From the NCBI GenBank assembly GCA_900661335.1, contig CAACVY010000003.1, positions 99 to 64,098 of the forward strand: a stretch of 64,000 bases of DNA, given 5' to 3'. Under the pieces are notes generated by a model, which was not told where the DNA came from, did no database searches, and worked only from the letters and a program-made list of their open reading frames with translations. The first letter of the stretch is position 1, and every line of letters begins with the position of its first letter. This document shows, piece by piece, positions 15,495 to 61,477 of the stretch. This stretch comes from an uncultured bacterium (GTDB lineage Bacteria; Verrucomicrobiota; Kiritimatiellia; PWTM01). The position numbers and the translations under genes were made by a program.

Positions 15495-15786
15495 GCAGTG
15501 AACTCCAAAACGTTCCACGCATAGCAAACAATCGTCCCGGCTTCAATGCGCATGGAACACCGTTCACGGGTCCAGCACAATCCCAGCGGGCTGGAACTTG
15601 GTTCCCCTGGGTCGCCAAGGCGAAGTGGGCGAGAAACGGATGTCGCGAATGTTGTGGCGGCCAGGCTCTCCCAACGACCGCTTGGCTTGGGGGACTGGCG
15701 CGATTGCTCGGCCGCGGATGGGCCGCGTTGACGGCACGGACCTTGACGACTACCATGCGCAGGCACGTTGCCCTTGGGCTGGACTC

Positions 15787-17151: not shown

Positions 17152-18500
17152 GCGATATCCTCCGCACGGTCCTAAAACCGGACATCTTGGAGCTGGTGGA
17201 GCTACGAGATTGGGCGACCTTGCAGGAGGTCCTCCGTCACCAGCCGGCGACAGATATCGTCGAATTGCTCGATGCTGTCTCCGATTCGGATGCACTGATT
17301 CTCTACCGATTGTTGCCGCGCAAGCTCGCCGAGGACGTGTTCGATCTTTTGCCGGTGGAGTTGCAGAACCGCCTCGTGCGTCTCATGAGTAGCGACGAGG
17401 CCGCGGCCATCGTCGAACAAATGTCACCCGACGATCGCACCGCGTTACTCGAAGAATTGCCTGCCCCGGTCGCCCGGCGCTTGCTCGACATGCTGCCCGA
17501 AGGCCAGCGGCGCGCGGCGCTGGCGCTGTTGAACTATCCCGAAGATTCCGTGGGCCGTTTGATGACGACGGCCTACGTGCGCGTGCGGCCAGAGTGGACG
17601 CGGGAACAAGTACTCGAGCACATCCGACAATATGGTGCCGACAGCGAAACGCTCGAAATGCTTTACGTAACGGATGAGCGTGGCCGATTGATGGACGACA
17701 TTCGGTTGCGACAGATCATTCTAGCCAATCCTGGTGCCCGCGTGGCGGATCTGATGGACCATCGTTTTATTGCGTTACGGGCCGACCAGGACCGTGAAGC
17801 TGCGGTGCACGAGTTCCGCAAATACGATCTCTACGCCATGCCCGTGGTGGACTCCGAGGGTCACTTGCTTGGGATTGTCACTCACGATGACGTGTTGCAA
17901 GTCGCCACGCAGGAAGCGACCGAGGACTTCCACCGGATTGGCACGGTTCAGCCGTTGCATACACGCTTTGCTATGGCCGGGGTCGGCTTGCTCATTCGGC
18001 GGCGGGTCAGCTGGCTGCTGGCGTTGGTGGGAGCCAATCTAATTTCCGGTAGCATCATCCACAGGTTCGAGGACTTGATCGCGGCCAATATCGTCCTCGC
18101 GTTCTTTTTGCCGTTGCTGGTCGACAGCGGCGGCAATTGCGGATCCCAGTCCTCGACCCTCGTAGTGCGTGCGCTGGCCACTGGGGACATCACCCCGCGA
18201 GACGCAGGGCGCTTATTGGCGCGCGAACTGATGGTGGGTCTTTTGCTCGGGGTGCTGACGGCGGCGGCGGTGTTCGTCTTGGGATGGTGGCGCGGCGGCC
18301 TCCCGATCGCCGAGATCGTCGCCCTCGCGATGGCCACCATCGTGGTCGTCAGCAGTGTGATCGGCTTGATGCTTCCGTTCCTGCTTTCGTGGCTTGGGTT
18401 CGATCCGGCGATGGCCAGCGCGCCGTTGATCACGACTTTGGCCGACATCACAGGCATCACCATCTATTTCCTCATCGCATCGCGCTGGCTCGCGTGCTGA
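17148..18500 (+). CDS. mgtE: magnesium transporter MgtE (copy 2)
   Basis: The GTG at 17148 overlaps the stop of copy 1 (GTGA). The architecture matches copy 1 (VSDILRTVLKPDILELVELRDW..., a CBS pair, GGNCGSQSSTL). Confidence 0.85.
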   Translation: MSDILRTVLKPDILELVELRDWATLQEVLRHQPATDIVELLDAVSDSDALILYRLLPRKLAEDVFDLLPVELQNRLVRLMSSDEAAAIVEQMSPDDRTALLEELPAPVARRLLDMLPEGQRRAALALLNYPEDSVGRLMTTAYVRVRPEWTREQVLEHIRQYGADSETLEMLYVTDERGRLMDDIRLRQIILANPGARVADLMDHRFIALRADQDREAAVHEFRKYDLYAMPVVDSEGHLLGIVTHDDVLQVATQEATEDFHRIGTVQPLHTRFAMAGVGLLIRRRVSWLLALVGANLISGSIIHRFEDLIAANIVLAFFLPLLVDSGGNCGSQSSTLVVRALATGDITPRDAGRLLARELMVGLLLGVLTAAAVFVLGWWRGGLPIAEIVALAMATIVVVSSVIGLMLPFLLSWLGFDPAMASAPLITTLADITGITIYFLIASRWLAC

Positions 18501-27881: not shown

Positions 27882-30095
27882 ATGGAGACTAATCGACCGA
27901 TCAAAACCATTTTGTTCGTCTGCACCGGCAATTCCTGTCGCAGTCCGATGGCGGCGGAGTTGTTCCGGTTGCGCGCGGGTCCGCAAGCCCCATGGCAGGC
28001 GAGTTCGGCCGGTTTGGCGGCGTTGGACGGCGCACCAGCGACCCCGGAGAGCGTCGAGGTCATTCGTGAGGTTGGAGGTGACCTGTCCGCGCACCGTGCG
28101 CGAAGAGTCACGAGGGAGATGGTGGAGTCGGCGGATTGGATCATCACATTCACCGCGAGTCAGGCTCGAGAGCTGCGACACATGGTGCCGGCCGCCGCGC
28201 CCCGCATCCGAACATTGGGCGAGTTTCGCTTGCGCGGCGCCGAGGGCGATATTCCTGACCCGATCGGCCAGTCTATCGAGGTGTACCGAGCGACTCGGGA
28301 TGCGATCGATTCCGCGATCGCCGACCTGTTGGTGGTGTTGTACGAACAAGATTCCAAAGCGCGGACCGAGAGCGCCTCGGCGTGGGCGTCGTCCGCCGCA
28401 GGAGGTTCGAGGACGATGAGAGTGGCAGTTGGGTGTGACCACGGCGGTTGGAAATTGAAACAGCAAGTGTTGGCGTGGTTGCGCGAGCACGGCATCGAGG
28501 CCGTGGACGTCGGGCCAGCAGCGGAGGAGCCGGTGGACTACCCGGACTTCGCGGCGGAAGTTGCGCGACGCGTGGAGCGCGGGGAAGTGGAACACGGGGT
28601 TGTCATTTGCACGACGGGGATCGGGGTGAGCATTACCGCCAATAAGTTTCCGGGGGTTCGGGCCGCGCTCTGCCTGTCTCCGTACATGGCCGAGATGGCA
28701 CGGCGCCATAACAACGCAAACGTTCTCGCGCTGGGCGGTAAAACGACGGATGTCCATACCCTTCCTGCCTTGCTCGAGGCATGGTTCTCTGCGCAGTTCG
28801 AAGGTGGCCGGCACGAGCGACGGGTGAACAAGATTGGGGCGATCGAAGCCGAGGAATCGGAGTTGGCCACCGTGACGCGCATGGATCCTGAAGTGGCCGA
28901 CGCGCTCCGAGCGGAATGGCGACGGCAGCGTGAGAACTTGGAGCTGATTGCGTCAGAAAACTACGTAAGCCGGGCCGTGCGCGAAGCCGTCGGGTCTGTC
29001 CTCACCAACAAGTACGCCGAGGGCTACCCTGGGCGCCGTTGGTACGGTGGGTGCGAATATGTGGACGTCGTCGAGCGGTTAGCGATCGAGCGGGCGCGGG
29101 CGTTGTTTGGAGCGGAACACGCCAACGTGCAGCCGCATTCGGGCAGTACGGCCAACATGGCGGTGTACTTCGCCTTGCTCCAGCCCGGCGACACCGTGAT
29201 GGGCATGAGTCTGGCCGAGGGGGGTCACCTTACCCACGGGCACCCCATGAACTTCTCTGGGCGGTTTTTCCGGATCGTGCCGTACGGGGTGCGGCGAGAT
29301 ACTGAGCAAATCGATTACGATGAGCTTGAGCGAAAGGCGCAAGAAGTCCGCCCGCGCATGATCATGGCTGGGGCGAGCGCCTATCCTCGCGTGATTGATT
29401 TTCAGCGTTTGCGTCGGATCGCGGATTCCGTCGGCGCGTACCTGGTCGTGGACATGGCGCACATTGCCGGGTTGGTGGCGGCGGGCGTTCACCCAAGCCC
29501 AGTCCCATGGGCCGATGTGGTCACCACCACCACCCATAAAACGTTGCGAGGTCCTCGCTCCGGGATGATTCTCTGCCGGGCCAAGTTTGCCGAGCTAATT
29601 GACAAACAATGTTTCCCGGGCATTCAGGGTGGGCCGCTCATGCACGTGATCGCGGGCAAAGCCGTGTGCTTGCGCGAGGCCACCACGAGCGAGTTCCGCC
29701 AGTACGCGCAGCAAATCGTGCGCAACGCGCAGGTGTTAGCCACACGCTTGGCGGAGGGTGGGCTGCGCATTGTGTCGGGTGGGACCGACAACCACCTGTT
29801 GCTGGCCGACGTCACCGGATTCGGATTGACAGGCAAAGAGGCAGCCGCGGCCCTGGATCGCGCGGGCATCACCGTGAACAAGAACACCATCCCATTCGAC
29901 ACGCGTTCGCCGTTTGTGACGTCCGGCATCCGCATCGGCACGCCGGCGGTCACGACTCGCGGCATGAAGGAGCCGGAGATGGAGGTGATCGCGGACTGCA
30001 TCCTCCAGGTACTACGACACCCGTCGGATGAAGCCGTCCTCACCCTTGTGCGCGAGCGGGTGCGAGAACTGACGTCACGGTTTCCGGTGCCGTGA
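27882..30095 (+). CDS. glyA: single-ORF fusion of a low-molecular-weight protein phosphatase, ribose-5-phosphate isomerase B and serine hydroxymethyltransferase
   Basis: Residues 1-150 carry the CX5R(S) loop VCTGNSCRS and DIPDP. Residues 179-318 match RpiB ([35 protein letters not shown]). Residues 334-737 match SHMT ([31 protein letters not shown]). There is no stop codon between the modules. The internal ATGs are at 28416 (preceded by GGAGG) and 28881. Confidence 0.85.
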
Positions 30096-51800: not shown

Positions 51801-52137
51801 GGACGGCGAAGCCGGATGGGTAGTGGCCACCCAGGTGAGGGAAGATCTTTGGCGAGCCCGGGGCCCGATACGTCGGATCGACGAAATCGACGCGCATCTG
51901 CGTCAGTTGCACATTTCGCCGCCGAGCTGGATGACATGGCGGCAGATCGCCAAGGCGTTGGAAGAGGTCGTTGCGCAATGGCCAGGGGAGATCCCGGTGT
52001 GCGTCAACGCCGTCGGCCAGCGCGGATCGCGGCGAAACGGTGCGCGCGTGAGGCTGGGTTGCGAATGCGTGAGAGCATTGGCCCGAGCGTTCGGACTTGC
52101 CTCGCTTCAGGTGAAGCTTGACCTGGGAAGAGAGTAA
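48844..52137 (+). CDS. DNA polymerase III alpha (DnaE)-like protein with intact-looking PHP domain but degenerate polymerase active site
   Basis: GTG start. The PHP N-terminus is FVHLHVHTEFSLLDS...AITDSGNLYGAVRFY...KPILGVELEV...VATNNVHYL. The palm/fingers are colinear with E. coli DnaE but the key blocks are altered: GPGRGSGAGS becomes GVARPSWTSS, FERFLNPERVSMPDFDVDF becomes PDSFINTERPEAPELALEV, HAGGVVI becomes HPTALVV, and GFNKSHS becomes RVSRTRF. Confidence 0.75.
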   Translation: MRSGFVHLHVHTEFSLLDSLVRIPALVERVAQLEMPAVAITDSGNLYGAVRFYREARRRGLKPILGVELEVAPLVYSLQLEAESNPDLVLLAETPEGWSSLRELVSEAHWVNPPPARPVATVDMLARWTRGLIVLTGGNNGEIARLCRAGQLDAADAALRQLVELFGREQVFVELANQGLPGQAELRQALRELARRVGVACVATNNVHYLSPADATAHQHLRSWRRGATYRELGYSDQFHLRSAEEMYAAFVEDPAAVQRTLDIAERCQATLYVGDGPSVPGVELPADLQPEMPAAYREELYLRRLATEALRRRAPHLQGGLALYERRLAAELEAVGRAGAVRRVLWFREIVHAARRDGWSLGVARPSWTSSLLSWLFGLTDVDPVDEDVPPDSFINTERPEAPELALEVSPLHRSAFVRWLIRRIGTDRAGHTITFGVFGWRSVLRELARGQGWSPSDTDAFIRRIHVDDGGPLGATVAAVSRQLAELGREEWARILTAVAGLPRNPSAHPTALVVSDRALRTHVPVARTPEGFLITQWDAETVARMGPVRLDVVSHAGAVWLSPGPDAEVGPCESNELSATLAALAMGDLVGIPYVDAPAIRERLRREGLRHWRELAQWFACAPSENRDATAATSKRTPLAEPGRGRRARWWGLLRGTNGQLLFVEQAQRWAEWIGGFTPARSDLLRRAVVSRDEELIARLWKLFVRGASQRKLLSDEARWYWEQILDTLARRVSRTRFLAQARAVCRAVRTRERDPWSWLAQALDAHESGSPMRLCLVREALVRGWVLRGPDLNQSRAVTVREADGVRLGLLGVQGLNEHAVDAWLRERDRRGPFRSVADFIQRVDMQQWTRAMAGALVSSGALDGLGASRDAAAVELEAGLFGASSGRAVEMPRRTRWSEEREVLGFPVSPHPLAEWAWLLSLAGFLGWASADAGVGMCVPLAGVLVERRTAGGREQIRFDWWSGEAWVDMEEGGDSNVEVLDGEAGWVVATQVREDLWRARGPIRRIDEIDAHLRQLHISPPSWMTWRQIAKALEEVVAQWPGEIPVCVNAVGQRGSRRNGARVRLGCECVRALARAFGLASLQVKLDLGRE

Positions 52138-52156
52138 AATAAAATTCAACGAAGTA

Positions 52157-54920
52157 ATGCGCCGTTTATTGTCCGTTGCTTTCGTGGTCGGCCTGTCGGT
52201 GTCGGGCATGATCCCGATCGCCCTCGGGCAAGACACATATAAGGAGACGTGGGCCGCGGCCGCCTCCGCGCTGGCGCGCGGAGCGTACGAGGATGCGATC
52301 CCGCCGCTGCGGAAGCTGATCGAGTGGTTCGGCGACACGGACAAGGCCAGCATGAAGGCTGAGATGGAGTCGGTGTACTACCATCTCGGGCTGTGCCACT
52401 TGTTTCTTGGCCAGTTCAGTGAAGCCCGCGAGGTGTTCAATACATACCTTAAAAAATTTCAGTACGGCGCCCACGCCTCGTTGGTGGCAATTTTCATCGG
52501 CGACACCTATCGGTACGAAGGCAAGACGGGCGACGCATTGGGTGCGTACGAAAAAGCCCTGAAGTCCTACGAGTACAACCTGGATCTGAAGACGGATCTC
52601 TGGGTGTGCATGGCTAAGTGCCACTTGGCGACGGAGAAGTGGTCGGCGGCCGAACCGCTGTTGCTGCAGGTCTACCGGAATGCGCCGGATGGCTATCGTC
52701 GGAACTGGGCAGCGGCGATGTTGGCCACTGCGTACTTAAAGGACCACCAGCCGGACAAGGTGTATCCGATGGTCCCGTTGCTGCTGCAGCGGGATTCCTT
52801 TGCTGCGCGTAGTGTGGCGCTGAACATGGCGGCCTTGGAGGAGGGCGACCGGCTGTTCATGGAGGACAAATATCGCGACGCGTTGTGGGTGTACCGGGTT
52901 GGTGTATCCCCACGACCTCTTGCGCCTCAATGCCCAGACCCAACTCGAGCGGTGGCGGTTGCAAGTTCGTCGGTTCCAGCGGTACCTGGGGTTCGCACGC
53001 GAACTGTTGCGGGCGCAGGAGACGGTTTCCGAGATCGAGAGCGAGCTCCAGGCGATCGAGAAAATTCCGAACTACGATGTGGAGCTTCAGTACCGCATTG
53101 CGCGCGGGTACATGGAAACGCGTCGGCTTCGCGAGGCCTCCGAACTTTTCTACGCATTGTACAAGGATGCGCCACCGGAAAAGAAAGAAGAGACGCTGTA
53201 CCTCTCGTTTTTGTGCGCGCTTCGAATTCGGCCGGCCGACCGGTGTCTGGCGCGCGGGCATGAGTACATGGACCGATACCCCGGGGGGCCGCACTACGAT
53301 GCGGTGTCGTTGGGTGTGGGGCAGATCTACGCGGCGGAGCAGAACTGGCCCAAGGTGTTGCAAGTGCTCACGAAAGCCCTGGAGGTGCATCCCAAGCACG
53401 AGGACATTGCGGAGGTGCTGTTCTTGCTCGGCTATGCATCCTTCATGGAGGAAAAATTCGCCGACGCCCAAGGGTATTTGGGGCGCATTGTGAAGGAGTA
53501 TCCGGGCAGCGAGCGCGAGGTGGACGCGCTGTACTGGCTGGGCATGGCGTACATGTTCGACCGAAAGTACGAGGAGGCGCAGCCGAACTTCGATCGAATT
53601 TTGCGCGACTTCGGAACCGCCATGTATGCGGAGGACGCACTGTTTCGCTCCGCCACGTGCGACTATGCGCTGAGCCGATTTGAGGAGGCGGAGCGCAAGC
53701 TGCTGCGCTTCTTGGAGCGGTATCCCGAGAGCCGACTCAGGGGCGAGGCGCTCGTGACGCTGGGCGACATTTCTGGCGCGCTGGGTGAGTTGGAGGAAGC
53801 CGTGCGCCGGTACAAGCAGGGGATGGAGGTCCCGGACCTGAACATCGAACTCTACAACCATGCCGCGTTCCGTGCCGGCGAGATGCTGCGGGAACTTCAA
53901 CGTTACGACGATGCCATCCGGCACTTTGAGGACTACATCGCTCGCGCTCGGCCGGAGTCGAACATTCCGCTCGCGATTTATTGGATCGGCGAATGCTACT
54001 GGGACAAAGGCGAGCCCGAGGTGACGCTCGCGCGCTTTCTCGAGGCGGTGGAAAAGTACGGCGGCGATCGCACCGAACTGGGCGTGGATTTGATTCTGGA
54101 GAAGTGGGTGGACCGCACGCGCGGCGCGGGATCCCATGGTCGGGCGGCTTGGAGCCGGTTGCGCGACCTGCTGCGCCGCGCATTGGAGTCCCGGCAGTAC
54201 ACGTTGGCGCTTCGGCTAGAACGCGTGTTGATGTATTCGCCGGAGACCTCGGACACTGAAAAAGAGGCGATGCGGAAGTTCATCTTGCGCCCGGAAAGCC
54301 TCAAGTGGGCCAGCGCAGGCGTTCTCGAGTGGATCGTGCAAGAGGCGGCGGCGAGTCAACCCCAGCTGGCGCGAGAGGCGGCGGAAACACTCGTCCGCGA
54401 CTTCACCGAAACGGACTACGCGTTGAGCGCGCGGCAACTCATTGCGGAGCAAGCAATCGCGGAAAAGAACTGGGACCTGGCCATCGTCCAGTACAACATT
54501 ATCCGCGAAGTGTTTGCGACGTCCGACGCCGCCGCGGATGCGCTGTTGAAGCTCGGCAAGCTGTATCAGGAGAAAGGGGAGTATGATCTGGCGGACCAGG
54601 CGTACCGCGATTTCCTGGCGGCCAAGGAGTGGAAGGCCCGATGGCCCGAGGCCCTATACGAGCGTGGGCGGCTTTGGATGGCCCGGGGGCGGTACGAAGA
54701 AGCCGCGGCGTACTTCGAACGCATCTACGTGCTTTATGGCGGACACAAGGAATGGGTCGGGCGGGCGTACCTGGCGCGCGCGGAATGTCTTGCCAAGTTG
54801 GGGCGGTTCCGCGGTGCCATTGAAACGTTGGAGGAGTTTGTTGGCCGACCAGAGTACGCGGATCTGCCCGAGGTGGCCCAAGCCCGTGAGATGCAAGAGC
54901 GATTGAAGGCCAAGCTGTGA
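52157..54920 (+). pseudogene. large secreted TPR-repeat protein interrupted by a +1 frameshift near 52895-52899 (or a sequencing error)
   Basis: Frame A (52157..about 52897) encodes the signal MRRLLSVAFVVGLSVSGMIPIALG plus TPR-like helices, ending in ...DKYRDALWVYR. Frame B is open from 52824 and continues LVYPHDLLRLNAQ... with TPR repeats to 54920. After the junction, frame A becomes a Pro/Arg/Ala-rich sequence that does not look like protein. The junction lies in the run CGGG TTG. Confidence 0.65.
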
Positions 54921-55990
54921 TCCGAGCAACTTCCATCCTCGGCGGTTGGATCTGTGGGGCCTTGGTGGCCTATGGTCAAGGCGCCAGTGGGCCGCAGACG
55001 GCCACCGTCGCGCGGGCCGCCGCCGAACCCGGGGTGTTGGTGCGTCTGGTCAAGGAAAACGAAGCCCAACGCGAAGTGCTGTTGGTCCGGCGGCAGGGCG
55101 ATGTAATCTTCTTTCGGCTGACGAACTCGCCGCCAGGGGTGTACTCGCAGTTCAAAGCCGCAGACTGGGATGAGGCAGAGTTTAAAATCCAGATTCCGGA
55201 ACAAGCGGCCTACCTGGAGGCATCGCGTCGCCAGTGGGCGTCCGCCGCGCGTCGGCTGCACGTGGCCATTGCGCCGGCGTTGCCGTTTTTGGACTTGCCT
55301 CAGAACAACGTGTTCGAGCCCGCGGTGCGCACGGCGTGGTACTATGTGCGAGCGGCGCAGCAAGCGGCGCGCCGTGGCGAGGGCGGGCAAGCGGACGCAC
55401 GTACGTACTACACCGCCGCCTACGAGGTGTTTCGTGAGGCCGGGCGTGCCGCGTCGTGGCATCCGTACGGGCAGTGTGCCGCCATCCGCGCTACGCTGTG
55501 CCTCGTGGAGTTGGGGCGGCTCGACGAGGCCGAGGCCGGGTTGGCGAAACTTCCCGAGCCTGAGATCGGCGACACGGCCTGGGGCGTGTACTGGTTGGCC
55601 CGTGCGCAGCTCTACTACGCGCGCGAACAACCCCGCTACGCGCTGGAAGCGGCCATTCTCTCCTACCTGCACGAGAACAAGGACGTGGAAACTTTCCCCG
55701 ACGCCCTCATGTTGGCCGCGCAGTGCTACGAAGACGTCAACGAGGTCCATCGCGCGCGCGACGTCTACTACGAAGTCGCGCGGCTGTTCCCGGGCACGGA
55801 TTGGGGGGATGAAGCGCGGGCTAGGTTAGTAAACATCATGGAACGCCGCATGACCGAGCGCCCCGAGGACCCCAACATCGCCGGAATTTTCTTTGGCACC
55901 GAAGAGGACATGAACGAAAAGGTCCGGAAGTTCTTGAAGGAGACCGAACCGAAACTGAATAGTTCCACGACAGGAGACAAGCAACCATGA
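54917..55990 (+). CDS. secreted TPR-like helical repeat protein
   Basis: The GTG at 54917 overlaps the upstream stop (GTGA). The signal is SILGGWICGALVAYGQG. Helical repeats are present (YYTAAYEVFREAG..., WLARAQLYYAREQPRYALEAA..., AAQCYEDVNEVHRARDVYYEVARLFPGT). Confidence 0.7.
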   Translation: MIRATSILGGWICGALVAYGQGASGPQTATVARAAAEPGVLVRLVKENEAQREVLLVRRQGDVIFFRLTNSPPGVYSQFKAADWDEAEFKIQIPEQAAYLEASRRQWASAARRLHVAIAPALPFLDLPQNNVFEPAVRTAWYYVRAAQQAARRGEGGQADARTYYTAAYEVFREAGRAASWHPYGQCAAIRATLCLVELGRLDEAEAGLAKLPEPEIGDTAWGVYWLARAQLYYAREQPRYALEAAILSYLHENKDVETFPDALMLAAQCYEDVNEVHRARDVYYEVARLFPGTDWGDEARARLVNIMERRMTERPEDPNIAGIFFGTEEDMNEKVRKFLKETEPKLNSSTTGDKQP

Positions 55991-56868
55991 CCCTACGAAC
56001 CTCACGCAGCATCGGAGTTTGGATGTTGGCGATCGCTCTCGGCTGGGGCGCGATGGCTTGGGCCCAGCAGGCCTCACCGGCGGTCGCCCAGCCACCCCCC
56101 ACCAAAGATGTGGAAGTGAAGATCACTTTGTGGGACCTCTGGGTGACGGGCGGGTGGGCGATGTATCCCATCGCACTCCTCTCTATCCTGGGGGCGGCGC
56201 TGACTGTGCATGGGTTCCTGTTCACGCGCCCGGAGAAAATGGTCCAATCGCACCTGGTGCCGATATTGCAGTCGCACATCAACAACCTGGATTTTCGTGC
56301 GGCCAGCGCGCTGTGTGCACAGAACCCCGGGGTCTTGACCAACATCGTCAATGCCGGCCTGCTTCGGTTGGCGGACGGCATTACGGACGTCGCCGTGCTA
56401 GAGAAGGCCATGGAAGAGGCCGCGGTGGAGGAAAACACCAATGGCCTGCGGCCTATCAGTTACCTCTCGATCTTCGCGTCCACCGCGCCAATGTTCGGAC
56501 TGCTGGGTACGGTGAGCGGTATGATCAAGGCGTTCCAAAAAATCGGGTTGGGGGCGATGGGCAACCCTGAAAAGCTTGCCGGAAACATTGGCGAGGCCAT
56601 GATCACCACGGCGTTTGGGTTGATCGTGGGCATTCCGCTGATGTTCTTCTATTTCTACCTCAAGTCTAGGTTTCAAGGGAACATGGCGCGCATCGGGCGC
56701 TTGGCGGGCAACCTCACCCACCACATGTCCTCGATCTTTGACCGACTCCGTACCGGCGAGCTGCCGTTGGATCGCGTGACGTTACCGGAACTGATGATGC
56801 CGTTGCCCGCGGCGAGCCCCGCGCCGGCTACATCGCCAGCCCCAACGACGTCGACCCCCGGAGCTTGA
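55987..56868 (+). CDS. exbB: MotA/TolQ/ExbB proton-channel family protein
   Basis: The ATG overlaps the upstream stop (ATGA). APMFGLLGTVSGMIKAF...NIGEAMITTAFGLIVGIPLMFFY is the canonical ExbB/TolQ TM2-TM3 block. Confidence 0.88.
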   Translation: MTLRTSRSIGVWMLAIALGWGAMAWAQQASPAVAQPPPTKDVEVKITLWDLWVTGGWAMYPIALLSILGAALTVHGFLFTRPEKMVQSHLVPILQSHINNLDFRAASALCAQNPGVLTNIVNAGLLRLADGITDVAVLEKAMEEAAVEENTNGLRPISYLSIFASTAPMFGLLGTVSGMIKAFQKIGLGAMGNPEKLAGNIGEAMITTAFGLIVGIPLMFFYFYLKSRFQGNMARIGRLAGNLTHHMSSIFDRLRTGELPLDRVTLPELMMPLPAASPAPATSPAPTTSTPGA

Positions 56869-56870
56869 CC

Positions 56871-57296
56871 ATGAGGCTGATCCGCGAAGACGTCGAAGAA
56901 GCTAAGTTCCAGATGGCGCCCATGATCGACATGGTGTTTCTGCTGTTGGTCTTTTTCATGTGCGCCTCGCAGATCAGCCAGAACAAGGCATTGCAGCTGG
57001 AGCTTCCCGTGGCGACCAAAGGCGTCGTTCCCAAGGAACGACCCACTCGTTGGATCGTCAACATCTTCGCGGATGGACAATTGTTCAGCGGCGATCGGCC
57101 GTGTTCAGTGGACGAGCTCAAGGCCGAAGTTTCTCGACGGCTTCGAGAAGAGCCGAATACGAAGATCTACCTGCGCGCGGACGCCAAGGCAGAGTACCGT
57201 CACATCAAAAAGGTGCTCGAGGCCATGGCCTCGATCGGCGTGGATGATTTCATTTTTGCCGTGTTCAACCCCAGCGAGAGTGCACTTTCCCCATGA
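56871..57296 (+). CDS. exbD: ExbD/TolR biopolymer transport protein (copy 1)
   Basis: FQMAPMIDMVFLLLVFFM contains the conserved TM Asp, followed by the periplasmic domain KIYLRADAKAEYRHIKKVLEAMASIG. Confidence 0.85.
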   Translation: MRLIREDVEEAKFQMAPMIDMVFLLLVFFMCASQISQNKALQLELPVATKGVVPKERPTRWIVNIFADGQLFSGDRPCSVDELKAEVSRRLREEPNTKIYLRADAKAEYRHIKKVLEAMASIGVDDFIFAVFNPSESALSP

Positions 57297-57730
57297 AGTT
57301 CCCTACGTTCGAGATCGAAGACCCGGACATCAACGTCTCCTCGCTGATTGACATGGTGTTCCTCCTGTTGTCCTATTTCATTGTGTCGGCCAGCTTGGTC
57401 CGCTCCGAGGCGGATCTCGGGATTCGCCTGCCGGGCATGCTGGCCCAAGCGCAGACGGTGGACATGGCCGACGAACAGATCATCGAGATCCGTGATACCG
57501 GTCGAGTGGTGCTGAACGGGTTGGAGTACGACTCGCCCGACTCGACGGAGCTGCCTCAACTGGTCCAGGTGTTGACCCGGTACCGATTAGCCTCCGAGGC
57601 GGCGCGCGCCGAGCCAATGATCACATTGCAACCCGACGACAAGGCCCGCCACCAACGGGTGGTGGACGTAATGAACGCCTGCGCGCGGGCAGGGATCAAG
57701 AACGTGACCTTCGCCGCCGGAGGTGGCTAA
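57293..57730 (+). CDS. exbD: ExbD/TolR biopolymer transport protein (copy 2)
   Basis: ATGA overlap with copy 1. INVSSLIDMVFLLLSYFIV contains the TM Asp, followed by ITLQPDDKARHQRVVDVMNACARAG. Confidence 0.85.
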   Translation: MKFPTFEIEDPDINVSSLIDMVFLLLSYFIVSASLVRSEADLGIRLPGMLAQAQTVDMADEQIIEIRDTGRVVLNGLEYDSPDSTELPQLVQVLTRYRLASEAARAEPMITLQPDDKARHQRVVDVMNACARAGIKNVTFAAGGG

Positions 57731-57747
57731 GCTAGGAGGGTCGCGCA

Positions 57748-59106
57748 GTGAAATCGGCTGTGCCATTGGATGTGATCCTCTCGGGCTTCGGATACCTGAA
57801 GCTCTCCGAGGAGCGGCGCCGAACGCTGTGGACCGTGGGGTTGATCAGCCTTTTGCTCCACGTGGCGGCGTTGCTGGTGTTCGGCTCGTGGGTAGTCATC
57901 CGTTCGTTGTTGGAAGAGCGCACGGTCTTCACCGCTCCGCCGCCCCTCAAAACCTATGAACCGCGCAAGCTGGAACATCAGGTGAAGGTGACCAAGCGGC
58001 AGCGCAGTTCTAGCCGACCGGCGGTCATGCCCCGAATGGTCGCGGCGCGGCCGTCGAGCCTGGCGTTGCCGGAAATCAAAGTGGATCCCAAAGTGGTCCG
58101 GACCAGTTTCCAGCCGAAATTTAAGGCGATCACCGGCATCGGGCTCGGCGCGGGCCTGGGGCAGGGCTACGGGCTGGGAGGCTTCGGCGAGGGCGTCTCG
58201 GCCTTCGACTTCTTCGGCATCCGTGGCCGCGGTGAAAAGATCATGATTTGTGTGGACGTGTCCATCAGTATGGTGGAGGAAGAGCGCGGTGGGTTCGAAG
58301 GGTTCGATCGAGTCCGTGCGCGACTCGGCCAGGTGATCGATGCGCTGACGGAGAAGACGTTGTTCAACGTTGTGGTCTTCGCCGATGCCGCGCAGACGTT
58401 CCGGGACGAGATGGTGCCGGCGACGGACGCGAACAAGCGGGAGGCGAAGAAGTTTCTAGCCCAGTTCAACACTCCCAAGAACTACGGTTTGACTTCGGGC
58501 AACGTCCGGTCCGTGGACCTCGGGCTGAAGGCGAAAGGCGGCACCACCCGGCTGGACTTGGCCCTCACGGCGGCGTTCCTCCAAGGCGCCGATACGATCT
58601 TGATCATTTCCGACGGACTTCCTCGCGTGGCCAAAGATATCACGGCGGATCAACTGGCCGCGTGGAATGCGCGGTTGGAAGAGTGGCGCAAAGCGAACGA
58701 GGCCGCGCTCCGTGCTTATGACGAAGCCGTAGCCAAGATGGAATGGCGCGAAGAGCGCGTGTGGATTCCACCGAAGCCGGCTCAACCCGCCAAGCTGCGC
58801 GAGAACGGCGGCTCGGGCGGTTCGGGACCTACGGAGGGCCATTGGGCAACTCGACGGGTACCCACGCGCCCATTGCCACCGCGGCCGAAGCCGCCCGAAA
58901 TGCCGGAGAGCATGAAGTGGTGGACATTGGAAGATTTCTTTGAACATTTCCGGCTGTTGCACGAGCAATGCTATGTCAAGAAAGGCAAGAAGCCGCCCGT
59001 CGTGCACGCCATCGGCTACGGTATTGACAAGGAAGGCGCGGATTTCTTGCGCGAGTTCACCAAGAAGTACAACGGCTCGTTCCGCAGCATCAGCCGAATT
59101 CAATGA
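57748..59106 (+). CDS. membrane-anchored vWA (MIDAS) domain protein with TonB/TolA-type SxxxH transmembrane helix
   Basis: The GTG lies 7 nt after AGGAGG. The TM helix is LWTVGLISLLLHVAALLVFGSWVVI, with S34 and H38 in SxxxH spacing. The vWA domain has MIDAS residues CVDVSISM (DxSxS), GGTTRLD and IISDG. Its last strands (VVHAIGYGIDKEGADFLREF...) are separated from the core by a coiled/Pro-rich insertion of about 110 aa. Confidence 0.8.
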   Translation: MKSAVPLDVILSGFGYLKLSEERRRTLWTVGLISLLLHVAALLVFGSWVVIRSLLEERTVFTAPPPLKTYEPRKLEHQVKVTKRQRSSSRPAVMPRMVAARPSSLALPEIKVDPKVVRTSFQPKFKAITGIGLGAGLGQGYGLGGFGEGVSAFDFFGIRGRGEKIMICVDVSISMVEEERGGFEGFDRVRARLGQVIDALTEKTLFNVVVFADAAQTFRDEMVPATDANKREAKKFLAQFNTPKNYGLTSGNVRSVDLGLKAKGGTTRLDLALTAAFLQGADTILIISDGLPRVAKDITADQLAAWNARLEEWRKANEAALRAYDEAVAKMEWREERVWIPPKPAQPAKLRENGGSGGSGPTEGHWATRRVPTRPLPPRPKPPEMPESMKWWTLEDFFEHFRLLHEQCYVKKGKKPPVVHAIGYGIDKEGADFLREFTKKYNGSFRSISRIQ

Positions 59107-60323
59107 CGCGCCGCCGGCTCGGCGGTCGTGATGAACTCGAGGTAGTCGTGGAACACCTCCACGAGGCCGGCACCGAATTCCTCCCACAGCGCGCCGGAGG
59201 GCGGACAAGACCGATTCGCAATCCAGTTGGCGTTCAACTCCAACACTACGGCATCCAGCCCATAGCGCGTCCAAATCCCTTCACCAAAGGTGCCGGGATT
59301 GGAGAAAATCGAGTGGCCTTCAGAAAACCATGTGTATTGGCGTAGCGCGGCCTCCAAACGTTCCATGCGACTGCGAAACTCTTTCAGCGCGGGTTCGTCG
59401 CCGGCCGGCAGGTGGAGTTTACCGTGGCCATCGTTGTGCAAATCAATGAGTAATGCAGGACGGCGATTTGCGGCCAGTTCGCGTTCGAGCCATCGCTCGA
59501 ACGCTGCGTTCTCGGGTGCTACTTCGGGGTCGGCGGGAACGTCCCACTTTCGATTGAGGTCTGCCCCACGGGCGTTGAACCGAGTCCAGCCGGCGACGAC
59601 TCCGTCCTTGTTCGCCATCGGCAACACGCAAACTTTGCACCGAGTCAACAACCGCTGAGAGGCGACGTCCATGGACACCAATCGTCGCAGCAGCCCTTGA
59701 ACCACCCAGTTGCCGCCGGACTCCCACGGATGTGCCCGCGCGCGCAGCACGATGGAACATGTCGTCGTCGGCGCGCCCACGGTCACCATTTCTAGCGGCC
59801 GTCCCTGTACAGTTTGGCCGACGACTTCAACGGTGACCCGTGGGCTGCGGCGGAGTTCTTCGAGCAGTCGTTCTAGGTCGGAAAGCCGGTATGGCTCCAC
59901 GCGCGCGATGTGTAGGCAGGGGCCGGGCATGGTCACCGCAAGGCGCACGCAGTTGGAGTGGAGGATTTCGGTCGCCACGGGACTCCATTCGCGCCCATTC
60001 GGCGACACGTAGAGAGTGCTCATTTCGTTCGCTGCGGAACTTGATCGTCCGTTCCACACGTTCAGCAAGTTCGTGAACTCCAGTGTCCAGGTGGTGCCCG
60101 AGGGAGCATGCAGCACCGTATAGATATGCCCAGCTGCGCGGTTGGGAGAGTTCCGTTCCTGGTCGTAGACAAGGTGGATCCGAATCTGTCGCTCCCCGAT
60201 GAGCTCCCACCACAGCGGCGAGCCGTTTTCCATTTTGGTTTCTAGGTAGGGTAGCTCTGGCTGGGCCATCGCGGCAACGGACAGGGCAGCCAGGGTTAGG
60301 AACTCCTGCGTGGTGCGTGTCAT
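59100..60323 (-). CDS. M14 family zinc carboxypeptidase with N-terminal beta-sandwich domain
   Basis: The signal is FLTLAALSVAAMA. The zinc and substrate motifs are RAHPWESGG (HxxE), GADLNRKW and LIDLHNDGH. The ATG at 60323 overlaps the upstream stop (ATGA). Confidence 0.8.
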   Translation of the reverse strand: MTRTTQEFLTLAALSVAAMAQPELPYLETKMENGSPLWWELIGERQIRIHLVYDQERNSPNRAAGHIYTVLHAPSGTTWTLEFTNLLNVWNGRSSSAANEMSTLYVSPNGREWSPVATEILHSNCVRLAVTMPGPCLHIARVEPYRLSDLERLLEELRRSPRVTVEVVGQTVQGRPLEMVTVGAPTTTCSIVLRARAHPWESGGNWVVQGLLRRLVSMDVASQRLLTRCKVCVLPMANKDGVVAGWTRFNARGADLNRKWDVPADPEVAPENAAFERWLERELAANRRPALLIDLHNDGHGKLHLPAGDEPALKEFRSRMERLEAALRQYTWFSEGHSIFSNPGTFGEGIWTRYGLDAVVLELNANWIANRSCPPSGALWEEFGAGLVEVFHDYLEFITTAEPAARH

Positions 60324-61477
60324 TGGGGTACTGCTCCAACGGATCCGACGCGCGAGCGGTAACCTTGTTCCAGATCTGCGGTGGTGGCGAGATCGTAGTA
60401 CATGCCCACGGGGCCATGGGGGCGCAAGGCCGCCTGAACGTTGGCCTCCTCGGATGCCCAAACGCTCAGCAGTTCTTTCGGTACGAAATCGCGCAGGGAC
60501 GCCGCCTCGCCGAACGTCCGCTGGGCGCGCGTGAATTTTCCCGCGGCGCTCAAGGCCAGAGCCAGACGCACAGTGGCTTCAGCTTCAATGGACCGCGCAG
60601 CGTTCCCGGCTTGGCGTGCGCGCTGCCGGGCTTCTTCGTAGGAGGCGATCGCATCTTCGAGTCGGGATTTGCCCTGAAACGCTCGCCCCCGCAATAGAGC
60701 GATGTCCGCAGCCTCCGTGTCGGCCAGCGTAGGATCGCCGATGTCCTGCACGGCCTCCAGCGCGCGCTCGGGTTGACCTGCGGCCAGCCACGCGCGGGCT
60801 TCTTCCCGACGGGCCTGTCGCCAGAGCTCAGTTTGGCCCACGCTCGGAGCCACCGCCAGCGCGGCGACGTTCGACCAGGCTACGGCCGCGTCCACATGCC
60901 GACGTTGGCGGGTGCGTGCACGTGCCAGGATTTGCGCCGTGGGCAACTGCACGGCCGCGTTGGTTTGGGATGAGCGGTTCCAGGCTTCCAACGCCCGGCT
61001 GGCAAAGTCTGCAGCTCGCTCGTCGTCGTTCAGTTCGGCAAACACCCACGCCGCTTCGGACAGGAGCTCACCCACCAGCTCTGGTGACTCGACCCGCAAC
61101 GCGTGGGCTTCGTCCAATGCGCGTTGCAACCAACGGAGGGCTTCGACGCGGTCGCCGGCCCGGTAGGCCAGGCGAGCGCGGACGCGATAGATCCGCGGCC
61201 TCGTTTCGGGTCGGAGCGGTTCGCGACAGGATTCGAGCCGTTGCAGAGTAGCGGCGGAGAACGTTGCATCGCCCAGTTCCGCGGCCATTTCGGCGATCTG
61301 AATCCAACACGTGTCGGGGGCAGGCTCGCCCCGCTGCACTTCCCAATGTTCCGCCGCTGAACGCCATGTGGCCAACACTTCCTCGCGCGAGCGGCCGACC
61401 GCCCAGCGCGCGTTGCCAAGTTCGAACTCTACCGGCGCCTGGGATCTCACCAAATTACGGGACTGTAGCTCCGACAA
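60320..61477 (-). CDS. TPR-like helical repeat protein
   Basis: Repeated A-x-x-x-A-L helical pairs are present (RARLAYRAGDRVEALRWLQRALDEA, AADFASRALEAW, EARAWLAAGQPERALEAV, LLRGRAFQGKSRLEDAIASYEEARQRA). It is translationally coupled to the M14 peptidase. Its 5' end overlaps the last 31 nt of pnp, so the true start may be internal. Confidence 0.6.
   Translation of the reverse strand: MSELQSRNLVRSQAPVEFELGNARWAVGRSREEVLATWRSAAEHWEVQRGEPAPDTCWIQIAEMAAELGDATFSAATLQRLESCREPLRPETRPRIYRVRARLAYRAGDRVEALRWLQRALDEAHALRVESPELVGELLSEAAWVFAELNDDERAADFASRALEAWNRSSQTNAAVQLPTAQILARARTRQRRHVDAAVAWSNVAALAVAPSVGQTELWRQARREEARAWLAAGQPERALEAVQDIGDPTLADTEAADIALLRGRAFQGKSRLEDAIASYEEARQRARQAGNAARSIEAEATVRLALALSAAGKFTRAQRTFGEAASLRDFVPKELLSVWASEEANVQAALRPHGPVGMYYDLATTADLEQGYRSRVGSVGAVPQ

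Follow-up and report, generated by a model that had tools for sequence, protein, structure and literature searches.

A predicted vWA force transducer with a TonB-style anchor and an intact MIDAS, encoded behind an ExbB-ExbD-ExbD motor in a Kiritimatiellia genome

TonB and TolA were long the only known carriers of inner-membrane proton-motive energy across the periplasm. In 2025 a vWA force transducer family was predicted in PVC bacteria (Williams-Jones et al. 2025, Mol Biol Evol 42:msaf138; PMC12204202). The published operon comprises a gene encoding a TPR protein, a tolQ-like gene, two heterologous tolR-like genes and the vWA gene, and the transducer was described as a helix with the His of the SHLS motif (defined as Ser-3x-His-6x-Leu-3x-Ser in PMC12905483), a disordered linker in which a motor box is set, a domain II roughly 100 residues long and, at the C-terminus, a vWA domain (PMC12204202). 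The same authors presented an AF3 model of docking on a TolQ-type pentamer for their own examples, and noted that no deletion phenotype was known for vWA transducers (PMC12204202).

The gene analysed here lies in a 64-kb window (i.e. the whole stretch of DNA under study, 64,000 nucleotides), and the first-pass annotation had read its product as a TonB-style anchor and spacer joined to a split vWA domain, a reading that is supported by the present results. Judged by its sequence, the product is a member of the vWA force transducer family. The same reading had already been published independently in 2025. BLASTP against the reference transducer of Tichowtungia aerotolerans, used as printed in the supplement of the 2025 paper (our genome scan did not return Tichowtungia), gave 28% identity over 319 aa (E 6e-28). 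This alignment extends from the helix through the linker into the vWA domain, of which it covers the first two-thirds, and it places S34/H38 of the window protein on S31/H35 of the reference.

Both T. aerotolerans transducers (1 and 2) resemble the window protein in their SxxxH helix, linker of about 100 residues, candidate motor box a few residues past the helix and vWA domain with an inserted helical segment, and the published family shares the operon as well as the occurrence in Kiritimatiellia, Lentisphaerae and Verrucomicrobiota. In contrast to the window subfamily with its invariant DxSxS, T and D, the Tichowtungia pair have DANKL and CSGYG at the MIDAS positions; furthermore, Tichowtungia carries two transducer genes in tandem (the window one), and the window linker is distinguished by an alternating-glycine tract and a basic helix.

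Like E. coli TonB, the window protein has an N-in single-pass Ser-3x-His anchor, a motif approximately 10 residues past the helix and a long periplasmic linker, and its gene is associated with an ExbB/ExbD-type 5:2 motor. Unlike TonB, it has a vWA domain instead of PF03544 and lacks the Leu and the second Ser of SHLS; its motor contains two different ExbD subunits, and there is no TonB-dependent transporter nearby. TolA shares the anchor logic (S18/H22 in E. coli), a TolQ/TolR-like motor and a CpoB-like TPR protein in the operon, but the window protein has no domain III, no tolB or pal is adjacent, and the TPR genes precede the motor instead of following pal. The TPH-vWA proteins, the second family of the 2025 paper, which occur with TolQ-like genes only, likewise combine a membrane-tethered vWA domain with a TolQ-like pentamer (PMC12204202). 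They lack the Ser/His pair, are paired, have an ExbD-like pore helix with an Asp and replace ExbD/TolR, whereas the window has two genuine ExbD genes and no Asp in the transducer helix.

Two further systems are comparable in part. BatA/BatB of Bacteroides and Leptospira are membrane-anchored periplasmic MIDAS vWA proteins with TPR proteins in their operons and similar folds (3ibs, 4jdu); in contrast to the window protein, they lack an SxxxH helix and a conserved linker, and they are encoded with a MoxR ATPase and DUF58 and without ExbB/ExbD. The window cluster and five related loci contain neither a MoxR-type ATPase nor DUF58. The Agl-Glt machinery of Myxococcus combines a TolQR-type motor, the periplasm-spanning TonB-like GltG/GltJ and the vWA adhesin CglB as final effector. 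There, the TonB-like and vWA parts are separate and CglB is an outer-membrane lipoprotein, whereas in the window protein they are fused and anchored in the inner membrane; the cluster showed no Glt homologues. Searching the literature for Kiritimatiellia in combination with TonB-dependent transport yielded nothing useful.

Organisation and synteny of the gene cluster

The transducer is encoded by the last gene of a cluster with the order TPR, TPR, exbB-like, exbD-like, exbD-like, transducer:

52118..54920, + strand: first cluster gene, large CpoB/BamD-like TPR protein with a signal peptide (Pfam TPR families, TIGR02795)
54917..55990, + strand: second TPR-like periplasmic protein, 357 aa (weak TPR_19 and ANAPC3 matches)
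55987..56868, + strand: ExbB/TolQ-like proton-channel subunit, 293 aa, whose N-terminus includes a signal-like segment (PF01618, 8e-28)
56865..57296, + strand: ExbD/TolR-like subunit 1, 143 aa, with D22 in the TM helix (MIDMVFLLL; PF02472, 3e-27)
57293..57730, + strand: ExbD/TolR-like subunit 2, 145 aa, with D20 in the TM helix (LIDMVFLLL; PF02472, 5e-19)
57734..57739, + strand: Shine-Dalgarno-like AGGAGG, 8 nt ahead of the GTG start codon (seen in the sequence itself)
57748..59106, + strand: vWA force-transducer gene, 452 aa plus stop, start codon GTG

The AGGAGG precedes a GTG start 18 nt past the exbD2 stop. The large TPR gene is frameshifted in the window near 52899-52921, where a tblastn alignment of the L005 orthologue changes frame; in loci L001, L002, L003 and L086 it is one gene of 926-943 aa. 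The ORF 52899-54920 scored 152 bits on TIGR02795 (tol_pal_ybgF; cutoff 90.1), with 6 matched stretches. An orthologue of the 357-aa protein was detected between the large TPR gene and exbB in nearly all loci. The ExbB-like protein falls below the equivalog cutoffs of TolQ and ExbB alike; it scores slightly higher on the TolQ than on the ExbB model, as does ExbD on the TolR relative to the ExbD model, with all TolQ/TolR scores far under the equivalog cutoffs. TM1 of ExbB contains GG..M.P....S66, conserved in 71 orthologues. ExbD subunit 2 is a heterologous partner of subunit 1, and both paralogues keep the transmembrane Asp.

The first-pass annotation had tied its reading to the presence of exbBD beside the orthologues. 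Synteny analysis bore this out: exbB-exbD-exbD was located directly upstream of the transducer gene in 66 of the 72 assessable loci, and the motor was within approximately 2 kb in 4 others. The cluster occupies a core chromosomal region between dnaE and pnp, and the window as a whole represents ordinary core chromosome. In the window, as in the other loci that were examined, neither tolB nor pal adjoins the cluster. A search of the cluster and the 30 largest remaining ORFs of the window detected no TonB_C, TonB-dependent receptor, TolB or Pal/OmpA domains, and an outer-membrane barrel, an adhesin or a TonB-dependent transporter was recognised neither in the cluster nor elsewhere in the 64 kb. 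Assignment to anti-phage defence with MotAB-like parts (e.g. Zorya) was considered and rejected, since PADLOC returned no match for five cluster proteins.

Genes for two secreted proteins follow the transducer gene in 44 of 76 loci; one protein has approximately 170 aa and the other is a PEGA-domain protein of 570-830 aa. The PEGA domains scored above the Pfam cutoff, and one of three examples had a C-terminus with a weak, sub-threshold similarity to PA-IL/LecA. Both genes are absent from the window and its closest relatives (L005-L010), which indicates that they are not obligatory partners.

Anchor, linker and vWA head of the transducer

The following parts of the protein were distinguished:

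57748..57831, + strand: cytoplasmic N-terminal tail, aa 1-28, with the basic cluster EERRR (positive-inside count; kinase/SAM domains at this place in relatives)
57832..57900, + strand: sole transmembrane helix, aa 29-51, TVGLISLLLHVAALLVFGSWVVI (helix in both models)
57916..57933, + strand: candidate motor box (D-box/R-box equivalent), aa 57-62, ERTVFT, with F61 about 10 residues past the helix
57928..58197, + strand: periplasmic linker, conserved, aa 61-150 (invariant columns of the alignment most densely packed here)
58198..58635, + strand: N-terminal two-thirds of the vWA domain, aa 151-296 (MIDAS conservation, fold matches, ITIH4/ITIH1 profile match)
58636..58926, + strand: clade-specific insertion, approximately aa 297-393, about 95 aa (models, alignment length variation, the relative P0169)
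58927..59103, + strand: C-terminal third of the vWA domain, aa 394-452 (models; conserved PPVVHxIGY and G443/R446)

The reading frame, the single transmembrane helix and the S34xxxH38 pair of the first-pass annotation were confirmed, and all the strings that it quoted were located in the sequence. GLISLLLHVAALLV corresponds to aa 31-44; the codons of S34 (nt 57847-57849) and H38 (nt 57859-57861) both fall inside the helix. As had been anticipated, the SxxxH pair is conserved in orthologues. Among 149 non-redundant relatives in the window family, S34 was retained in 89% and H38 in 92%, making them the two most conserved residues of the helix (the most frequent residue at neighbouring positions reached approximately 25-70%), and among 141 representatives of the wider family (clusters at 50% identity or less) the values were 91% for S and 93% for H. 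On this alignment evidence the pair is more than a chance occurrence. Of the complete SHLS motif only S and H are kept, the Leu position being taken by F45 (85% F) and that of the last Ser by V49.

Approximately 8-10% of the relatives are devoid of S or H (G/L, A/T, S/F and S/Y variants) and nevertheless retain the operon, which shows that the Ser/His pair is not indispensable. The idea that these variants are the motor-unlinked members was discarded: the unlinked L034 and L064 keep both residues, and several of the S/H-less variants keep the operon. The similarity of the N-terminal profile to TonB and TolA that the annotation had proposed as a check was not obtained. A profile of aa 1-163 compared with all PDB chain sequences (E up to 10) gave two chance matches and neither TonB nor TolA; therefore, homology of the anchor is not demonstrable by sequence.

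The 15 residues ahead of the helix contain four K/R and two D/E, which is a modest positive-inside bias. In some relatives, Ser/Thr-kinase or SAM domains are located N-terminally to the same helix, and this places the vWA head in the periplasm, i.e. outside the cytoplasm, as the earlier reading demanded. As shown by these comparisons, the transducer is a predicted type II single-pass inner-membrane protein with a short cytoplasmic tail and a periplasmic head.

The linker had originally been described as Pro/Lys-rich. This description hardly fits its composition of 11% P (10 prolines among 90 residues), 9% K and 12% G. Its first part, APPPLKTYEPRKLEHQVKVTKRQRSSSRP, corresponds to aa 63-91, and the conserved features comprise a basic helix at 72-88 (PRKLEHQVKVTKRQRSS), the invariant P91, R96, L107-P108 and the alternating-glycine tract of aa 130-149. 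In the first AlphaFold2 model the pLDDT of the linker was below 50; with a deeper alignment the helix 72-88 appeared, and residues 89-148 stayed at low pLDDT, which leaves most of the roughly 90-residue linker without predicted structure. The alignment shows, as a new observation, that no other part of the protein is conserved as well as the linker, which is not rich in proline; the TonB linker, in contrast, is Pro-rich and variable. Such strong conservation suggests a binding surface rather than a passive spacer. Given the 11% Pro, a conservation far above that of TonB spacers and a possibly helical part (72-88), the linker may have a role other than that of spanning the periplasm.

The candidate motor box contains F61, which was invariant in the window-subfamily alignment and present in 89% of the wider family. 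The region aligns with the published "stator box" of Tichowtungia (residues 55-60), the position of F61 agrees with the D-box spacing of PMC12905483, and it lies where the D-box of TonB and the R-box of TolA lie. In both monomer models no beta-strand was formed at this segment, and the linker (aa 61-150) had low pLDDT.

The complete MIDAS that had been noticed in the split vWA domain was confirmed in the sequence, and the vWA fold was confirmed by two AlphaFold2 models and Foldseek. The quoted strings DVSIS, GGTTR and SDG are located at aa 170-174, 264-268 and 288-290, respectively, and contribute D170/S172/S174 (nt 58255-58269), T267 (within 58537-58551) and D289 (within 58609-58617). These residues were invariant in 33 sequences and at least 90% conserved in 144. 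Sequence comparison indicates that the MIDAS is invariant in the window subfamily and lost in the reference pair, which has not been described before. It is degenerate in many relatives, the published pair among them, and so a mechanism common to the whole family cannot rest on metal-dependent binding.

The two models reached pLDDT values of 78 and 86.6, with more than 90 over aa 150-448 except for the insertion loop. Foldseek matched them to the vWA domains of ITIH1/ITIH4, PilB, alpha2delta-1, LapA and BatB (E down to 2e-7), and a profile match to the ITIH4/ITIH1 vWA domain was obtained as well (E 5e-4). In the Pfam and NCBIfam searches the transducer gave only sub-threshold vWA scores (VWA_2 18.7 bits, VWA_3 17.0 bits; cutoff 27), which reflects the divergence and splitting of the domain, and it matched no TonB, TolA or Bat model. 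The C-terminal third consists in the models of helix 394-408, strand 418-424, helix 428-440 and strand 445-448. The C-terminus is therefore the remainder of the vWA fold, as first proposed, with no match to PF03544 or the TIGR TonB models.

The insertion in the vWA domain, together with its helical segment and Pro tract (RPLPPRPKPPEMPE, aa 374-387, nt 58867-58908), proved to be real and spans approximately 95 aa. In the compact 340-aa relative P0169, which lacks it, the alignment runs as far as the SDG strand, beyond which only approximately 46 residues follow, and the Foldseek alignments extend over about 300 columns as compared with vWA targets of 190 residues. In the models the insertion is built from a helical hairpin (300-330), a beta-hairpin (333-340 and 365-372) and a variable loop (341-364), with pLDDT above 90 except in the loop; its length varies across the alignment, and the Tichowtungia proteins carry a related helical segment. 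According to the models, the insertion is thus a compact subdomain and not the extended rod that had been envisaged, which is also new.

Other heads on the same anchor and linker

The same anchor-plus-linker, with F61, the basic helix, P91, R96, L107-P108, the alternating-Gly tract and FFG as its linker features, was found to carry other heads, namely compact vWA, PA14-like and alpha/alpha-toroid-like, which has not been reported previously. In the case of the PA14-like head, Pfam PA14 scored just below the cutoff in one member, and the remaining assignments are based on the sequence pattern. The cassette is present in at least 393 sequence clusters, and cytoplasmic Ser/Thr-kinase or SAM domains are joined to it in approximately 12% of cases.

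Distant relatives with other heads are also encoded directly after exbB-exbD-exbD. In the PA14-head group this applied to approximately 44 of 65 assessable metagenome loci, and two ExbD genes, which are likewise a feature of the window-family loci, were present in 24 of the 25 adjacent PA14-group loci with enough upstream DNA. About one-third of the PA14-group genes have no adjacent motor. The location of the other-head relatives behind the motor indicates that it is the anchor-plus-linker cassette, and not the head, that travels with the motor.

Proposed mechanism, rival explanations and significance

The most probable interpretation, to which we assign a probability of roughly 0.7, is that the protein acts as a periplasm-spanning force transducer driven by the proton motor encoded just upstream. 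By analogy with the TonB-ExbBD and TolAQR structures, the helix would dock through its Ser and His on TM1 of one rim subunit of the ExbB pentamer, and the segment around F61 would be captured as a motor box by an open ExbD1/ExbD2 heterodimer. Proton flow via the ExbD aspartates D22 and D20 would then turn the motor and pull the linker, and the vWA head would grip an acidic residue of an envelope partner through its MIDAS metal and pass on the pull. This partner may be an outer-membrane or periplasmic protein, possibly one of the co-encoded CpoB-like TPR proteins.

A specific version of this mechanism, which we regard as rather unlikely, holds that the cluster is the Tol system of its lineage. 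The vWA transducer would replace TolA, its head would engage TolB/Pal or another outer-membrane tether, and together with the CpoB-like TPR proteins it would stabilise or constrict the outer membrane at division. Such a role is consistent with the score of the large TPR protein on the CpoB/YbgF model, the slightly better fit of ExbB and ExbD to the TolQ and TolR models and the position of the cluster in the core chromosome. It also agrees with the 2025 catalogue, in which Kiritimatiella glycovorans and a Lentisphaerae MAG have tolB-pal but lack a recognisable TolA, and Tichowtungia has neither TolA nor TonB (PMC12204202). However, tolB and pal do not adjoin the cluster in the window or in the examined loci, the TolQ/TolR scores are far too low for an equivalog assignment and the matches to the CpoB model reflect in part generic TPR similarity; moreover, TolA binds TolB by beta-strand addition, which is not an obvious option for a vWA head.

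The same motor coupling might instead have a surface output, either adhesion or gliding, or the capture of glycans and their import across the outer membrane. The 2025 paper made this suggestion, gliding included, by analogy with Myxococcus Agl-Glt and CglB (PMC12204202). The vWA domain is an adhesion module whose closest folds belong to adhesins and pilus tip proteins, the two secreted proteins encoded downstream in 44 of 76 loci (one of which has PEGA domains and, in one of three examples, a weakly PA-IL/LecA-like C-terminus) would fit such an output, and so would the PA14-like head of sister subfamilies. Nevertheless, we consider it improbable, as the window lineage and L005-L010 lack both downstream genes and no outer-membrane barrel, adhesin or TonB-dependent transporter was recognised in the window. 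To our knowledge, gliding has not been reported for these taxa.

A function without any force transduction appears more improbable still. According to this explanation, the protein is a static, membrane-anchored vWA scaffold like BatA/BatB, or else it regulates or senses the motor, and its Ser and His serve helix packing or oligomerisation and information flows inward, from the envelope to the cytoplasm. BatB and an "aerotolerance-related membrane protein" are indeed among the fold matches, the kinase and SAM domains of some relatives suggest signalling, S or H has been lost in some members, and part of the PA14 group is encoded away from a motor. On the other hand, the single helix is not the Bat arrangement, the MoxR ATPase and DUF58 are missing from the window cluster and the five related loci, and it is difficult to account for the near-universal placement behind exbB-exbD-exbD across very different subfamilies unless the protein is physically linked to the motor. 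Furthermore, the motor-unlinked transducer copies still keep S and H. The tonB gene of E. coli is similarly unlinked from exbBD, and its product keeps the Ser/His pair.

Taken jointly, the data allow a tentative reading, in our estimate somewhat short of even odds, in which the anchor-plus-linker is a portable motor-coupling cassette and, next to TonB and TolA, defines a third broad class of transducers driven by the PMF. If so, the same ExbB-ExbD1-ExbD2 motor would both exert a pull on targets in the envelope and inform the cytoplasm of mechanical load, and the intact MIDAS of the window subfamily would provide a grip that depends on metal and is possibly strengthened by force, as in integrins.

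The basic idea is already in print (PMC12204202), and our analysis confirms and refines it rather than constituting a discovery. The window locus provides a clean example with an intact MIDAS, and recognition of the cassette, not the head, as the conserved element may guide the choice of mutations and bait. Kiritimatiellia and Lentisphaerae include important degraders of sulfated polysaccharides. A third transducer class with an adhesion-type head, present where TolA or TonB has not been found, would point to an unrecognised energised process in the envelope of these bacteria.

The predicted transducer gene and its cluster

The gene encoding an SxxxH helix, a linker and a split vWA head is genuine, and the first-pass annotation is confirmed: every string that it quoted was found in place in the ORF, which was read from the window sequence with a GTG start and 452 residues. 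AGGAGG lies 8 nt before the GTG and the stop codon of the upstream exbD 18 nt before it. The gene is the last member of a tightly packed, co-directional cluster.

Features of the cluster and of the transducer (window positions; aa, transducer residues)
52118-54920, +: large CpoB/BamD-like TPR protein, first cluster gene, frameshifted in the window
54917-55990, +: second TPR-like protein
55987-56868, +: MotA/TolQ/ExbB-family protein (PF01618, 8e-28)
56865-57296, +: ExbD/TolR-family protein 1 (PF02472, 3e-27)
57293-57730, +: ExbD/TolR-family protein 2, different from protein 1 (PF02472, 5e-19)
57748-59106, +: predicted transducer
aa 29-51, +: hydrophobic segment TVGLISLLLHVAALLVFGSWVVI, with S34 (nt 57847-57849) and H38 (nt 57859-57861)
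aa 63-91, +: linker tract APPPLKTYEPRKLEHQVKVTKRQRSSSRP
aa 170-174, 264-268 and 288-290, +: MIDAS strings DVSIS, GGTTR and SDG of the vWA domain
aa 374-387, +: Pro tract RPLPPRPKPPEMPE, in the vWA insertion

The transmembrane aspartate is retained in both ExbD proteins (D22, D20), and S66 in TM1 of ExbB is a Ser conserved across 71 orthologues. The first TPR gene, a single gene of ~930 aa in relatives, is split over two reading frames (tblastn with the orthologue from locus L005 matched in frame 2 as far as 52921 and in frame 3 starting at 52899); the switch near 52899-52921 reflects either a true frameshift/pseudogene or an assembly error. PADLOC gave no match on the cluster.

Upstream of the cluster lies dnaE, and on the opposite strand 3' of the cluster are genes for an M14 peptidase and a TPR protein, pnp and rpsO. 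The convergent M14 zinc-carboxypeptidase gene (59100-60461, -) and the transducer gene share 7 nt at the 3' end of the latter. The remaining window is core chromosome (ddl-ftsQ-ftsA-ftsZ, mgtE, PEPCK and others), in which no TonB_C, TonB-dependent receptor, TolB or Pal domains were detected among the 30 largest ORFs outside the cluster. It includes two tandem MgtE-type magnesium transporter genes (15598-17151 and 16866-18500, +); since the mechanically called ORFs overlap by ~285 nt, the second probably starts further downstream than called. Low-molecular-weight phosphatase, RpiB and serine hydroxymethyltransferase are encoded by adjacent yet separate genes in some bacteria; here, these domains share one 737-aa ORF (27882-30095, +), which may be a genuine fusion or arise from a miscalled start codon.

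Family membership, conservation and structure

A search of a large protein collection identified 394 relatives, the best 120 of which (48–100% identity, 392–508 aa) derive from metagenome-assembled genomes of Kiritimatiellia, Lentisphaerae/Victivallales and Verrucomicrobiota, where they are labelled hypothetical or 'VWA domain-containing'. The 'vWA force transducers' of Williams-Jones et al. 2025 comprise an SHLS helix (His35), a disordered stretch that holds a motor box, a ~100-residue domain II and a C-terminal vWA domain; the authors take as reference two tandem transducers of Tichowtungia aerotolerans (Kiritimatiellota), where they found neither TolA nor TonB, and no phenotype has been reported for them (PMC12204202). 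Using the sequences from the supplement of that paper, we aligned the window protein with Tichowtungia transducer 2 (28% identity over 319 residues, E 6e-28), which placed S34/H38 on S31/H35 and F61 on the 'stator box' at residues 55-60. On the basis of this alignment and these correspondences the protein can be assigned to the family. The first-pass interpretation is supported and matches the published one; this kind of system is known, though only from computational descriptions.

In contrast to the Tichowtungia pair, which reads DANKL and CSGYG at the MIDAS positions, the window subfamily retains the motif: D170, S172, S174, T267 and D289 are invariant in a 33-sequence alignment and at least 90% conserved in a 144-sequence alignment. 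The MIDAS is degenerate in many other relatives too, and its invariance here is new with respect to the published family.

According to cryo-EM evidence, the Ser and His of TonB/TolA contact TM1 of ExbB/TolQ, and, 10–15 residues C-terminal of the helix, a D-box/R-box binds the ExbD/TolR dimer in its open form (2026 review, PMC12905483); F61 of the window protein compares with this box in lying 10 residues past the helix end. The SxxxH spacing proved conserved in orthologues: among 149 non-redundant transmembrane regions, in which the surrounding helix positions vary freely, S34 was retained in 133 and H38 in 137. S or H is replaced in ~8–10% of relatives (G/L, A/T, S/F or S/Y), several of which remain in the operon; at loci L041, L045, L051 and L059, which have lost the anchor Ser and/or His, exbD is still directly upstream. 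Such lineages may form the contact in another way, or may not need the His; the pair is strongly favoured, not indispensable. The variants detected were G/L (proteins P0086, P0093 and P0095, loci L045 and L059), A/T (L041, L051), S/F (P0013, P0014, P0087) and S/Y (P0072, P0107).

Unexpectedly, the densest run of invariant residues lies in the linker (F61, P64-66, P72, E76, V79-K80, Q85, S87-P91, and further P95-R96, L107-P108, F121-P123, the alternating-glycine tract G130...G149 and F155-F156-G157). The linker is the most conserved portion of the protein, which we regard as new. Its composition (11% Pro, 9% Lys, 12% Gly) and dense conservation exclude a TonB-like polyproline spacer or a free-drifting tether. 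The glycine tract, GxGxGxGxGxGxGxxGxGxG (aa 130-149; 58135-58194), is almost invariant and directly 5' of the vWA domain; even distant relatives conserve it at 85–89%, although the models give it a pLDDT <50.

Two AlphaFold2 runs, one on 33 sequences (mean pLDDT 78) and one on 144 (86.6), both gave a long N-terminal helix with the membrane segment, low confidence at ~61-148 and a high-confidence alpha/beta domain at 150-448; the deeper alignment added a basic helix at 72-88. Foldseek against the PDB returned vWA domains only (E down to 2e-7), namely ITIH1/ITIH4, PilB minor pilin, alpha2delta-1, a Catenulispora vWA protein, LapA, RrgA and BatB; the ITIH4/ITIH1 vWA was also reached by a sequence profile. 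The insertion noticed in the first pass is real (~aa 297-393, confidently modelled, placed after the SDG strand and ahead of the helix that leads into the next one) and contains the helical segment and Pro tract described. It does not form an extended rod: it is modelled as a compact subdomain, in which a helical hairpin (300-330) is followed by a beta-hairpin (333-340, 365-372) that has a variable loop, and then by the Pro tract. A compact 340-aa relative lacks it, and the Tichowtungia proteins carry a related helical segment at its position.

The vWA head is periplasmic. In distant relatives a SAM and/or Ser/Thr protein kinase domain precedes the same helix and linker; these are cytoplasmic modules, which places everything C-terminal to the helix in the periplasm. 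A modest positive-inside bias (4 K/R vs 2 D/E before the helix, 2 vs 2 after) is the lesser evidence.

Motor linkage and exchange of heads

Gene context was compared at 83 distinct loci, drawn from species-representative genomes and assemblies, 72 of them with enough upstream DNA to assess. In 66/72, the transducer gene follows immediately on the end of exbD, which is itself preceded by exbB; linkage to the ExbB/ExbD1/ExbD2 motor is near-obligate. Of the others, two have an extra 1.35 kb between motor and transducer gene, two carry this gene just upstream of the cluster, and in two it is unlinked, both copies retaining S and H.

A profile of residues 1-163 alone, which cover the helix and linker (the cassette), matched 393 clusters (50% identity) at E <=1e-3 and 122 at E <=1e-10. 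Of 141 aligned representatives, 91% have the S and 93% the H; also kept are F61, P91, R96, L107-P108, the glycine tract and FFG. The heads included split vWA, compact vWA, PA14-like (one Pfam PA14 match, just below cutoff) and alpha/alpha-toroid-like (weak squalene-hopene-cyclase matches, 1/3 above the Pfam cutoff). The toroid-like branch (P0140/L086, P0152, P0171), in which this domain replaces the vWA head, has the same operon, with exbB, two exbD and genes for a TPR protein of 943 aa and a protein of 368 aa. In 17/141, the cassette comes after SAM and/or kinase domains, which are cytoplasmic. The combination of such domains with a PA14-like head (P0198/L085, P0218, P0126, P0234/L089, loci L091-L170), which we did not find in Williams-Jones et al. 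2025, is still encoded directly 3' of exbB-exbD-exbD and suggests motor-linked signalling. In a metagenome scan, ~44/65 assessable loci of the PA14 group had this placement and 20 lacked an adjacent motor. Examples of four of these architectures directly follow exbB-exbD-exbD, and it is therefore the anchor-plus-linker cassette that travels with the motor, the head being exchangeable.

Proposed mechanism and alternative roles

S/H conservation, the exbB-exbD-exbD linkage and the periplasmic head support a TonB-style anchor fused to a vWA domain, and we give a motor-coupled transducer a probability of roughly 0.7. By analogy, its helix would dock at the rim of the ExbB pentamer via S34 and H38, and the ExbD heterodimer would capture the F61 region; proton flow would turn the motor and the linker would be pulled, while the vWA head may use its MIDAS metal to grip a partner at an acidic residue and pass on the force.

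Were the protein such a transducer, it might replace TolA, a tentative proposal favoured by the CpoB-like TPR proteins of the cluster and by tolB-pal without TolA in related genomes. Surface adhesion or uptake is unlikely. It is supported by two secreted proteins that, in 44/76 assessable loci, are encoded 3' of the transducer gene (L001 11396-13713; L002 9424-11645; L004 9572-12682), the first of ~170 aa with no recognised domain and the second of 570–830 aa with PEGA domain(s) and, in 1/3 examples, a weak sub-threshold PA-IL/LecA-like match at the C-terminus, but neither the window nor L005-L010, its closest relatives, contain this pair. Set beside the motor linkage, a non-motor scaffold or an inward-signalling role seems improbable. 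The central idea of a motor-coupled vWA transducer is not new; its biology is testable.
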